Shown here: in pieces, positions 12,763-15,441 of the stretch | How the letters are laid out: each line of letters opens with the position of its first letter | Position numbering within the stretch: the first letter of the stretch is position 1 | Source: Tequatrovirus BCH953P4 | Sequence record: OZ035789.1 | Strand: one strand, 5' to 3' | DNA length: 64,000 nt | The notes under the pieces: model-generated | The model's input: only the letters and a program-made list of their open reading frames with translations | What the model was told of the DNA's origin: nothing | Databases searched by the model: none | Position numbers and translations under genes: made by a program

Positions 12763-13041
12763 TCAAAATGTAATTTCTAACCAATCACCATCACGCTGAT
12801 CACTATTGACTTTAAAGCTGAATCCTTCTTTTCTCAGCCAATCACCAATTTCTTCAGTAATCAATTTATCACGAGCAATACAATAATAATTAAAATGTGT
12901 TTTACCTTGTTCAGCTGCTTTATTAGCAAGTTCCGAAAAATCTTTAATAAAACACTCTAGCTTAAACTGTTTACTTTTTAATGCTTTTTCGCGCAATTGA
13001 TTAGCAAAAGATTCATTTTCATAAAGATCATACTGTTCCAT
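12763..13041 (-). CDS. Hypothetical protein (T4 24.2 position)
   Basis: 92 aa ORF tightly packed downstream of rnlB. Confidence 0.6.
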   Translation of the reverse strand: MEQYDLYENESFANQLREKALKSKQFKLECFIKDFSELANKAAEQGKTHFNYYCIARDKLITEEIGDWLRKEGFSFKVNSDQRDGDWLEITF

Positions 13042-13243
13042 TTTTCACCTTTTTATTGATATGTCTTTTTCTATAGACAACTTTTTCTCGAGTTTCAAAT
13101 TTATTCTTAGCAGTCATAGCTCGAGCCCATAATACAGCCACTTCTTTTGCCTGTAAGTTCAATTCACGAGCAATTTCAATGAATGACTTTCCAGACTCAT
13201 GAAGAGTAAACACCACAACCTCAGTTCTCATAATCAATCTCAT
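13028..13243 (-). CDS. Small putative helix-turn-helix protein (T4 24.3 position)
   Basis: 71 aa; segment GKSFIEIARELNLQAKEVAVLWARA resembles an HTH; start uncertain. Confidence 0.55.
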   Translation of the reverse strand: MRLIMRTEVVVFTLHESGKSFIEIARELNLQAKEVAVLWARAMTAKNKFETREKVVYRKRHINKKVKNGTV

Positions 13244-13332: not shown

Positions 13333-14751
13333 TTATGGATAGGTATAGATGATACCAGTTTCTAAAGCAGTTTTATGAATGATGTATCCATTACGCGATT
13401 CTTGGACATCAACTTCTGGATAGTCTTTCATCATCTTCTGAAGAGTGTAACGATGCAGGTAGTATTTACTATCTGGATCTTCAGTTTTCCAATCTTTACC
13501 TTCTTCAGTCATTTTTTGGATTTCATCCATAACCCACCAACCGCACCAGATGTAAGCTGAGCTACGGTGTGGAAGAGGATGAACATAAGGTAATTCACCT
13601 TCTGGTTCTGGAGCAACTTTATCAGTTACCTGAACTTGACCTTCCGCCGTAATAGTTTTGCTATCATAATCAGCAGCAGTAACAGTTGCAGTAACTTCAA
13701 TAGTTTGACTTCCAATAGATGAGGTATCAACTGTATATACATTAGTTGATCCTTCTACAGGAGAAGAATCTTTCTTCCATGAATATTCAATTTGCGCTTC
13801 TTCTGGAGCATCAGTGACATTAGCAGTAAATGTAGCCGAAGCATCTTGCTGAACGTTAATAGAAGGAGGAGTCAATGTAACCTGTGGATTCATTGTCTTC
13901 TTATTAACCGTTAATGATACTTCATTAGAAGTAACTGTTTTTGCGTCATAATCTGTTGCTGTTACTTGGGCTACGCATTTAATTCTTTTTACTCCACTTG
14001 TAGTTGGAGTATAGCTAAATGTAGAGTTAGTTTCTCCACCAACTTGTGAATCATCTACATACCACTGATACGTAGCAGATGCTCCATCAGGTTGAGAAGC
14101 TAAGGCAGCAGTAAATTGAACTGGGGTTCCGATAACTCCCGCTGAAGGACTATCGGGAGTTACTGCTAAGGTAGTTGTCTGTGTCTTTTTATTAACAGTC
14201 AGCGACACTTCATTAGAAGTAACTTCTTTTGCATCATAATCTGTCGCGGTTACTTGAGCCACACACTTAATTGTTTTAACTCCGCTTGTGGTAGGAGTGT
14301 AATTGAATGTAGCAGAAGTTGCTTCGCCCACAGGAGAACCGTCAACGTGCCATTGATACGTAGCAGATGCACCTGGTGGCTGCGAAGCTAAGGCAGCGGT
14401 AAATTCAACAGCTGTTCCAATCACTCCAGCAGCAGGACTATCAGGAGTTACTGCCAAGGTAGTTGTCTGAGTTTTATTTTGAACTGTGATAGTAGTTGAC
14501 GCTTGAGCTGTTTCAGCTTCAGTATCAGGAACTGGATTTGTTGCAACTACCTTAATAGTCTTTTGACCGGCAGGACCTTTTAGTACATAACTAAAAGTTG
14601 CAGACGTTTCTTCCTGTGGTGCATCATCAACAGTCCAAGCATATGTAATAGGTCCATCTCCAGTTTGACCACTGGGTGTGGCAGTAAACTGCTGAGTCTG
14701 ATCTATAACTCCAGTAGGTGTTTTAGGAGTTATATCAACTGTAAAAGCCAT
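13333..14751 (-). CDS. hoc: Highly immunogenic outer capsid protein Hoc, with an extra Ig-like domain
   Basis: 472 aa vs 376 aa remembered for T4; N- and C-terminal regions match T4 Hoc; internal ~96-aa domain present twice. Confidence 0.9.
   Translation of the reverse strand: MAFTVDITPKTPTGVIDQTQQFTATPSGQTGDGPITYAWTVDDAPQEETSATFSYVLKGPAGQKTIKVVATNPVPDTEAETAQASTTITVQNKTQTTTLAVTPDSPAAGVIGTAVEFTAALASQPPGASATYQWHVDGSPVGEATSATFNYTPTTSGVKTIKCVAQVTATDYDAKEVTSNEVSLTVNKKTQTTTLAVTPDSPSAGVIGTPVQFTAALASQPDGASATYQWYVDDSQVGGETNSTFSYTPTTSGVKRIKCVAQVTATDYDAKTVTSNEVSLTVNKKTMNPQVTLTPPSINVQQDASATFTANVTDAPEEAQIEYSWKKDSSPVEGSTNVYTVDTSSIGSQTIEVTATVTAADYDSKTITAEGQVQVTDKVAPEPEGELPYVHPLPHRSSAYIWCGWWVMDEIQKMTEEGKDWKTEDPDSKYYLHRYTLQKMMKDYPEVDVQESRNGYIIHKTALETGIIYTYP
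13891..14178. repeat. hoc internal tandem direct repeat, copy B (approx.)
   Basis: ~288 bp unit encoding one Ig-like domain (TLAVTPDSP...SLTVNKKT), ~85% identical to adjacent copy. Confidence 0.8.
14179..14466. repeat. hoc internal tandem direct repeat, copy A (approx.)
   Basis: second copy of the ~288 bp Ig-domain unit, in frame. Confidence 0.8.
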
Positions 14752-14760
14752 AAGTTATCC

Positions 14761-15441
14761 TTATTTTAATGTTACGAAAGAAGAATTGCGTGTTTCACGA
14801 ATTAAAACTGATCCGTCACGGTTAATGTAATAAATTAAGCTAAATAATGTTTGGTGTGCAGAAGCATGCTCAAAACTAGTTGGGTGAGATTTCCAATCCG
14901 GAGTTTCAGCAATCCATTGATAAATCCACCAAGGAACAGTGCAGAATCCTGGATTTTTTCCAATCAGCTGAAGATTTGGGCTAAAGTTTTCCGGAAGAGT
15001 AAATACAGACGGCTTTTCAGATTCAATAATCTCAGCTACAGCCTGTTCAAATTTTTCTTCAACAAAAGGAGTATCTTCAATCAAAACATCGGTATTTTCA
15101 GGAATTTTATCCTTTTCTACTACTTCAATTTTAATGTCAGATTTAACCGGAGAATCAATCAGAAGTGCTGCTTCTGGATTGACTTCTTCATCGTCATATT
15201 TTAATCCCTCTGCGGCATCAGCAGCATCAATTAAGTCTTTAATAGATAACCCATCAGTCTCTGGCATAGGTTCACTAGCGAGCTTCTGGAGGGCTTCTTC
15301 AATATCAACAACGATATTATCAAAAGATTTATTCTTTTTGACCTTTATACCAAACTGTTCAGCATATTCAGCTAATTTAGCTTTAGCTTCTTTATTATCA
15401 TCAAGAGCCTTCAGCTCTGCAATATAATCTTTATCTATCAT
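14761..15441 (-). CDS. inh: Putative inhibitor of prohead protease (Inh)
   Basis: 226 aa, position downstream of hoc as in T4. Confidence 0.7.
   Translation of the reverse strand: MIDKDYIAELKALDDNKEAKAKLAEYAEQFGIKVKKNKSFDNIVVDIEEALQKLASEPMPETDGLSIKDLIDAADAAEGLKYDDEEVNPEAALLIDSPVKSDIKIEVVEKDKIPENTDVLIEDTPFVEEKFEQAVAEIIESEKPSVFTLPENFSPNLQLIGKNPGFCTVPWWIYQWIAETPDWKSHPTSFEHASAHQTLFSLIYYINRDGSVLIRETRNSSFVTLK

Follow-up and report, generated by a model that had tools for sequence, protein, structure and literature searches.

Background

Phage T4's Hoc protein (376 aa; PDB 5vf3, 8t1x) forms a fibre of four domains, 18 nm in length, the C-terminal domain of which binds gp23* hexamers as visualized by cryo-electron microscopy (PMC10385173). 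It serves as a display scaffold and has been proposed as a mucus-adherence factor of T4-like therapeutic phages. Variability of Ig-like domain number in Hoc has already been published: in a set of 650 Hoc homologues the number is variable and reaches 10 in phage Muldoon (Fokine et al. 2023; PMC10385173), T4-like phages vary in how many Hoc domains they have and in how these are arranged (Wu et al. 2024), and a Tequatrovirus Hoc without domain 3 has been described (Fu et al. 2024).

The present analysis concerns the hoc gene of Tequatrovirus BCH953P4, located in a stretch of 64,000 nucleotides (sequence record OZ035789.1; hereafter, the window). An earlier reading of this stretch from its letters and open reading frames alone (hereafter, the sequence-only reading) had drawn attention to an in-frame tandem duplication of an Ig-like domain in hoc. 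The duplication consists of two diverged versions of domain 2, here termed alpha and beta. Full-text searches of the literature returned no explicit account of this alpha-beta tandem in Tequatrovirus, only general statements that domain number is variable and cases that involve other domains. The hoc gene of the window is nonetheless an old, widespread allele of a known modular protein; it is not peculiar to this genome and, as it stands today, is no active hot spot.

Identity and genomic context of hoc

The gene for the highly immunogenic outer capsid (head decoration) protein occupies positions 13333-14751 of the window on the minus strand, an open reading frame of 472 codons plus stop. Its product matches T4 Hoc (PDB 5vf3_Z, 376 aa) with E = 5.6e-220 in phmmer, and the same gene is annotated in relatives as hoc or Hoc-like head decoration, so that the assignment made by the sequence-only reading, a hoc gene of 472 aa, stands. 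The T4 length of 376 aa against which that reading had measured it is likewise correct, being the length of 5vf3_Z and of the product of the 1131-nt hoc gene of T4 strain 147 (GenBank KJ477685). Alignment of the two proteins falls into two blocks, in which window residues 1-113 correspond to T4 residues 1-113 and window residues 189-472 correspond to T4 residues 93-376; thus, the window Hoc is T4 Hoc with exactly one additional 96-aa copy of domain 2. The objection that T4 Hoc might already contain the same number of domains, which had been named as the observation that would overturn the claim, does not apply, T4 having a single unit.

The surroundings of the gene are those of T4-type hoc. 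Immediately upstream is inh, encoding the inhibitor of prohead protease (14761-15441, minus strand, 226 aa), identified as an open reading frame and by synteny with a 226-aa gene that in relatives is annotated inh or has the Pfam domains Phage_Inh_N/C. Downstream is a gp24.3-like gene of the DUF2774 family (13028-13243, minus strand, 71 aa), identified in the same manner, the relatives' gene at this position being annotated 24.3 or DUF2774. The order in the window (uvsW-like helicase, inh, hoc, 24.3, 24.2, RNA ligase) is the annotated order in T4, RB14, VEc74 and slur02, and the slot flanked by inh and gene 24.3, in the vicinity of uvsW and rnlB, is the conserved position of T4-type Hoc. Many Tequatrovirus genomes match the window at 97.2-97.6% identity across 25 kb, which marks its source as a T4-like coliphage. 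The sole opposite-strand open reading frame that overlaps hoc (13375-13560, 61 aa) does not reach the repeat and is without support.

The tandem duplication of domain 2

Two repeat-finding tools report a single array of two 288-nt units, 13894-14181 and 14182-14469, with 79% matches, no insertions or deletions, and a TRF score of 737. Copy A (14182-14469, minus strand; aa 95-190) is of the alpha type and is the copy without a T4 counterpart; copy B (13894-14181, minus strand; aa 191-286) is of the beta type and is the counterpart of T4 Hoc domain 2. Compared in register, the copies are identical at 228 of 288 nucleotides (79.2%), a match with a chance probability of approximately 2e-66 if a chance match rate of 30% is assumed, and at 82 of 96 amino acids (85.4%), in agreement with the direct repeat of about 288 bp and the segments of about 96 aa and 85% identity that had been described from the sequence alone. 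Third codon positions account for 42 of the 60 nucleotide differences. Long perfect homology between the two window copies was not found, the longest exact in-register run being 18 nt.

Both units begin at codon position 1, and the duplication is therefore in frame. The sequences at the unit junctions (NKT/QTTTL, KKT/QTTTL and KKT/MNPQ) indicate that the repeated unit is exactly one domain with its linker. The adjacent units are thus of equal length, share a reading frame and end at the borders of Ig-like domains, which is the signature of an in-frame tandem domain duplication. The interval 13891-14466 given by the sequence-only reading designates the same array, but is shifted by one codon from the better phase of 13894-14469; the phase that places the units at aa 95-190 and 191-286 is preferred, since Q95 and Q191 are the same residue and Q191 and M287 are not.

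Domain layout and predicted structure

The remainder of the protein follows T4 Hoc from end to end. Ig-like domain 1 (aa 1-94; 14470-14751, minus strand) aligns to T4 Hoc 1-94, is modelled by AlphaFold2 as a beta-sandwich with pLDDT of approximately 85-94, and shares 38 of its 94 residues with the domain 2 unit. Ig-like domain 3 (approximately aa 287-378; 13618-13893, minus strand) aligns to T4 Hoc 191-282 and is matched by Pfam Ig_3 and I-set at aa 289-373, with AlphaFold2 strands that extend to aa 376. The linker and C-terminal capsid-binding domain (aa 379-472, with the stop codon; 13333-13617, minus strand) are nearly identical to T4 Hoc 283-376, and the few substitutions between window residues 377-472 and T4 residues 281-376 leave this domain recognizable as the capsid-binding domain. 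The overall acidity of the protein is preserved (pI 4.49, versus 4.74 for T4 Hoc).

Three lines of evidence identify an N-terminal string of Ig-like domains of the PKD or I-set type. The Pfam families matched by the window Hoc are PKD, PKD_4, Ig_3, Ig_2 and I-set. AlphaFold2, supplied with a shallow alignment of 34 sequences, predicts four consecutive beta-sandwich domains in aa 1-378, with block-mean pLDDT mostly above 90 and dips to approximately 79-85, and gives the identical strand pattern to aa 95-190 and aa 191-286. The top Foldseek matches in the PDB are strings of four Ig domains, from Sidekick, Dscam, ICAM-5 (D1-D4) and a bacterial Ig-repeat ice adhesin. The C-terminal domain is poorly modelled (pLDDT below 50), probably on account of the shallow alignment. 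The claim of one Ig module more than in T4, arising by in-frame tandem duplication of domain 2, is accordingly borne out by the alignment, the repeat and the model. Identity among Hoc domains 1, 2 and 3 is 28-40%, and the whole of Hoc was therefore built by serial domain duplication, with the domain 2 tandem as its youngest layer.

Copy number among relatives

Hoc lengths among the best 120 homologue clusters are 376 aa (79 clusters), 472 aa (29 clusters) and 568 aa (7 clusters), apart from a few near-variants, and a hidden Markov model of the unit detects exactly one, two or three full 96-aa units, in register, in these respective classes. No homologue longer than three units ranked above these classes. 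Among phage records in GenBank, 655 matched, and an evenly spaced sample of 60 yielded approximately 50 full-length matches, of which approximately 21 span about 1419 nt (two-copy) and approximately 29 span about 1131 nt (one-copy, including T4 and RB14); the two-copy hoc is thus present in roughly 40% of sampled Tequatrovirus records. NCBI and Logan already contain the window protein with an identical sequence, and its 90% identity cluster has 167 members, among them the Hoc proteins of RB30 (AAM52483.1), slur02, Sf23 and IME340. The two-copy allele is therefore common, annotated and public.

The number of units (one, two or three) varies within Tequatrovirus even among genomes with approximately 97% identity across the 25 kb around the gene. 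The nearest relatives of the window by this measure (97.2-97.6%) include FL12, KK4, QOTSP, G2540 and VEc74, which have two copies, and BCH953P2, vB_Eco_NR1 and vB_Eco_CP, which have one. Divergence is also locally higher in hoc than around it: for FL12, identity to the window is 97.5% across 25 kb and drops to 91.5% in hoc.

Age of the duplication and selection on the copies

By the method of Nei and Gojobori, copies A and B differ by dS = 1.09 and dN = 0.089, for a dN/dS ratio of 0.08, and in seven other two-copy hoc genes the copies differ by dS of 0.58-1.37 with dN/dS of 0.08-0.26. Orthologous comparisons between the window and T4 give far lower values of dS: 0.36 for domain 1, 0.16 for copy B versus T4 domain 2, and 0.24 for domain 3 with the C-terminus. 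Copy A is at dS = 0.84 from T4 domain 2 and at 0.31 from RB14 domain 2. Because the distance between copies A and B is far above the orthologous distances between the window and T4, the divergence of the units long predates the separation of the window phage from T4. At synonymous sites the copies are close to saturation, and the duplication is not recent.

The low dN/dS, together with confident folding of both copies in the AlphaFold2 model, indicates that both are kept as functional coding sequence, and the codon comparison argues that both have been retained under purifying selection since they diverged. Any implication that the duplication is recent or specific to this phage is contradicted by a dS of approximately 1.1, by two copies in approximately 40% of sampled records, and by the public availability of the exact protein. 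The suggestion that the repeat marks a recombination-prone site holds for the history of the locus, as witnessed by the states of one, two and three units and by alpha-to-beta chimeras (see below), but not for the present: with dS of approximately 1.1 and no more than 18 nt of exact in-register homology, the window pair is a poor substrate for unequal crossing-over today.

Evolution of the alpha and beta units

A neighbour-joining tree was made from the 288-nt units of 22 hoc genes (the window, 20 public genes of one to three copies, and one metagenomic gene of three copies). The units fall into two clades, such that all first copies are alpha and all second and third copies are beta. Single units are found in both, those of RB14, IMG4, O157kw, BCH953P2 and CP in the alpha clade, and those of T4, FL34, IMG2, IMG3, EcMI02, SHBML-50-1, MLF4 and REP1 in the beta clade. 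Copy B of the window pairs with T4, and copy A joins the RB14 single unit and the first copies found in other two-copy and three-copy phages.

The units were also painted by 23 sites diagnostic of alpha versus beta, none of which is in the first 89 nt of the unit; the sites were defined on two-copy genes, so that only the units of one-copy and three-copy genes constitute an independent test, and the single-copy genes painted at the DNA level are a small sample of 13. By this criterion the single unit of IMG4 is pure alpha and that of RB14 nearly so, and the single units of FL34 and IMG2 are pure beta. The T4 unit is beta with a short alpha patch, and copy B of the window has the same alpha-type patch at nt 226-235 of the unit. 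The single unit of O157kw is a clean alpha-to-beta chimera, and that of CP is largely of this type but broken up in its 5' part; those of BCH953P2, MLF4 and REP1 are mosaics rather than simple chimeras with one switch. Three-copy genes have alpha, then a beta-like unit, then a third type, and the pattern of the latter in UGKSEcP1, termed gamma, recurs in the lone unit of EcMI02 and in unit two of sb4. At the protein level, where three tightly linked residues (unit positions 46, 49 and 50) reveal the core type of a unit but not chimeras, these core residues assign 57 of the 77 single-copy clusters to the alpha type. Average-linkage clustering of the protein units at several thresholds gave fragmented, position-mixed clusters, attributable to the mosaicism of the units, and the DNA tree and painting are clearer. 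The existence of single copies of A type, of B type and of A-to-B chimeric type points to repeated recombination, and the picture as a whole agrees with one old alpha-beta tandem that was later altered by recurrent deletion and by patches of gene conversion.

The explanation that we favour, with a probability of about 0.9, is that the window hoc contains an old alpha-beta tandem maintained by purifying selection, that it represents one of the states in a copy-number polymorphism (one, two or three units) of long standing within the genus, and that a longer fibre is its probable consequence. The alpha-beta arrangement would be old relative to the radiation of T4-like phages, and purifying selection would keep both copies folded and functional. 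Homologous recombination, both from unit to unit and between co-infecting phages, would have deleted, added or patched units repeatedly, and the 376-aa Hoc of T4 is the state with the beta unit only. The direction of change may have followed either of two routes, namely losses from an ancestral alpha-beta tandem or the joining of two diverged single-copy alleles.

The latter route, in which single-copy hoc is ancestral and the tandem was put together by unequal or illegitimate recombination between the alpha and beta alleles of co-infecting phages, draws on the existence of both pure alpha and pure beta single-copy genes, the alpha type being the majority (57 of 77 single-copy clusters), on the character of hoc as a mosaic hot spot (as in the FL12 comparison above), and on the occurrence of the gamma unit as a single copy in EcMI02, a second copy in sb4 and a third copy in UGKSEcP1. 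It has to contend with an order of units in which alpha invariably precedes beta (all 8 of the sampled two-copy genes, the window and both three-copy genes), which fits a single origin, and with the alpha-to-beta chimeric single copies, which are what deletion from a tandem predicts. On balance, the joining of alleles is possible but rather unlikely.

Other explanations fare considerably worse. A recent and unstable tandem duplication, confined to the window phage or its immediate lineage and flickering in copy number within populations by unequal crossing-over, might be imagined from the differences in copy number between close relatives, and tandem repeats in general are substrates that the very active recombination system of T4 readily uses. 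The copies in question differ at 60 of 288 nt, with dS of approximately 1.1 and an exact in-register match of 18 nt at most; they are orthologous by position across at least nine two-copy and two three-copy genes; and the 472-aa form occurs in 29 separate clusters at 90% identity. Divergence, positional orthology and wide occurrence make such a recent event highly improbable, and it is rejected. An artefact of assembly or annotation, by which collapsed or expanded repeats create a false extra unit, has precedents among public hoc sequences (a frame-breaking tandem duplication of 77 nt in BYEP02 and a 1-nt insertion or deletion in PST), but assemblers would not confuse copies that are 21% diverged, the open reading frame is intact, and identical as well as many near-identical proteins are present in independent isolates and metagenomes; this explanation is rejected as having next to no likelihood. 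Horizontal gain of the extra module from some other Ig-domain protein is equally implausible: Ig-like domains are reportedly promiscuous among phage structural proteins, yet the closest relatives of copy A are the domain 2 units of other Tequatrovirus Hoc proteins, such as that of RB14 (dS 0.31), and copy A has 85% identity with copy B, as against approximately 40% with domains 1 and 3. A foreign source of the Ig domain is therefore also rejected.

Possible function of the longer Hoc

Since the capsid-binding domain is unchanged, the window Hoc should still dock by means of it, presumably with one monomer seated centrally on every gp23* hexamer of the mature head. By analogy with the T4 fibre, that of the window would be longer by one Ig module, approximately 4-4.5 nm or roughly a quarter of the T4 length, which would position domain 1 farther from the capsid. 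It would also add a second copy of a surface that has been reported to bind fucosylated mucin. The motif NEVSLT occurs once in T4 Hoc (aa 180) and twice in the window Hoc, at aa 180-185 in copy A (14197-14214, minus strand) and at aa 276-281 in copy B (13909-13926, minus strand).

Published data on mucin binding by domain 2 are in conflict. In domain 2 of the PNJ-9 Hoc, residues S183, L184 and T185 of NEVSLT were reported to be essential for binding of fucose on MUC2 (PMC11853027). In the PNJ-6 Hoc, which is a four-domain protein of the T4 type, MUC2 was bound by domain 1 but not by isolated domain 2 (PMC11150434), and a mucus-adaptive change in T4 Hoc was mapped to domain 3 (PMC9271167). The AlphaFold2 model places the SLT residues within the last beta-strand of domain 2 (strand 182-187), so that loss of binding upon mutation could reflect unfolding. 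An effect of the additional Ig module on adhesion or display, as the sequence-only reading had envisaged, is plausible. A stronger proposal is that the polymorphism of one, two and three units is selected, a recombination-driven tuning of fibre length and glycan avidity in which alpha and beta are distinct modules and T4 Hoc is a derived deletion. We advance this only tentatively and consider it improbable as a whole; if it is true, the work on mucus adherence and vaccine display that used T4 Hoc describes only the short allele.

The value of the window hoc as a discovery is small, since the allele is common in nature and the decoration protein that it encodes is non-essential and well studied. 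Its practical relevance is that approximately 40% of sampled Tequatrovirus genomes are predicted to have a longer fibre, in which the domain linked by one study to MUC2 binding is present twice. The longer Hoc matters for extrapolation from T4, for anti-Hoc reagents and for comparisons of gut retention among isolates, and the naturally occurring forms with one, two and three units lend themselves, as they are, to a test of whether fibre length or domain valency affects adherence.

Comparison with known Hoc proteins

T4 Hoc is the product of the same gene in the same slot, between inh and 24.3. Its domain 2 (T4 residues 93-188) is the counterpart of copy B of the window and nearly identical to it in protein sequence. 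The difference is the alpha copy A, which has no counterpart in T4: the window Hoc has two domain 2 units instead of one and is 96 aa longer. The 472-aa Hoc proteins of RB30, slur02, Sf23, VEc74 and FL12 have the same alpha-beta tandem, encoded by a gene of 1419 nt, and 88-96% protein identity; Tequatrovirus Hoc proteins of this length differ from that of the window only by point substitutions and small alpha/beta conversion patches. The 568-aa Hoc of Escherichia phages UGKSEcP1 and UGKSEcP2 and of metagenomic contigs has the same unit, in the same register and between the same flanking domains, but differs by one further unit, gamma or beta-like, after alpha and beta.

Beyond Tequatrovirus, Hoc proteins of a sister Tevenvirinae lineage (IMG/VR loci L005-L012) are 282, 377 and 472 aa in length, likewise separated by steps of a whole domain. 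These were compared by multiple alignment, as blastp of distant Hoc homologues against themselves listed no internal repeats, probably due to culling of hits. Their 472-aa form has an extra module resembling domain 3, and their 282-aa form is without domain 2; this length series is an independent modular change and not the event seen in the window. Published Hoc proteins of variable length illustrate the same principle, a conserved capsid-binding domain preceded by a string of Ig-like domains, but the domains gained or lost are different ones, in other lineages.

Variation in unit number and type

The two-unit form of Hoc is previously on record under that name from a classic RB phage, since the 90% identity cluster of the window protein (13336-14751, 472 aa) also holds 'outer capsid protein Hoc [Enterobacteria phage RB30]' (AAM52483.1, 472 aa). 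Expansion of domain 2 extends to a three-unit hoc encoding 568 aa, which occupies positions 301-2007 of the locus both in phage UGKSEcP1 and in a metagenome scaffold. The third unit of UGKSEcP1 is of a distinct type (gamma); units of this type are also found in Shigella phage sb4, as the second of the gene, and in phage Ec_MI-02, where hoc has no other unit.

The alpha and beta types of unit share a first segment (unit nt 1-89) in which there are no fixed differences between them. Further along, at unit nt 226-235, a short alpha-type patch covering three diagnostic sites is common to the beta-type copy B of the window (13894-14181) and the single beta unit of T4; it has the appearance of a tract left by gene conversion long ago.

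The hoc gene (13333-14751, minus strand) is a local hot spot of diversity in comparison with window positions 1-25000: it is 95.6% identical to its best public match, and some genomes have 97.5% identity across the surrounding 25 kb, yet only ~91% within hoc. Between the window and T4, the highest dN/dS ratio among the regions of Hoc is that of domain 1 (0.36).

Two public records contain a disrupted hoc. In Escherichia phage BYEP02 (OR757454; locus positions 601-2096), the gene is split into two annotated CDSs, and its frame is broken by a 77-nt tandem duplication where the C-terminal domain begins; either the gene has become a pseudogene or the record was misassembled. The two-unit hoc of Yersinia phage PST (NC_027404; locus positions 301-1720) contains a 1-nt indel, because of which the RefSeq CDS begins only at locus position 791; the indel probably reflects either a frameshift or faulty sequencing.

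Comparison with a sister lineage

Four IMG/VR loci (L005, L006, L007 and L011), in which hoc runs from position 1501 onward, represent a sister lineage within the Tevenvirinae, with Hoc proteins that are ~50% identical and have an N-terminus beginning MAYTV. Their lengths follow the same stepwise series, at 282, 377 and 472 aa. The 472-aa protein of the sister lineage has an additional module resembling domain 3, and the 282-aa protein is without domain 2. Thus, gain and loss of whole domains has happened independently, in different domains of Hoc.
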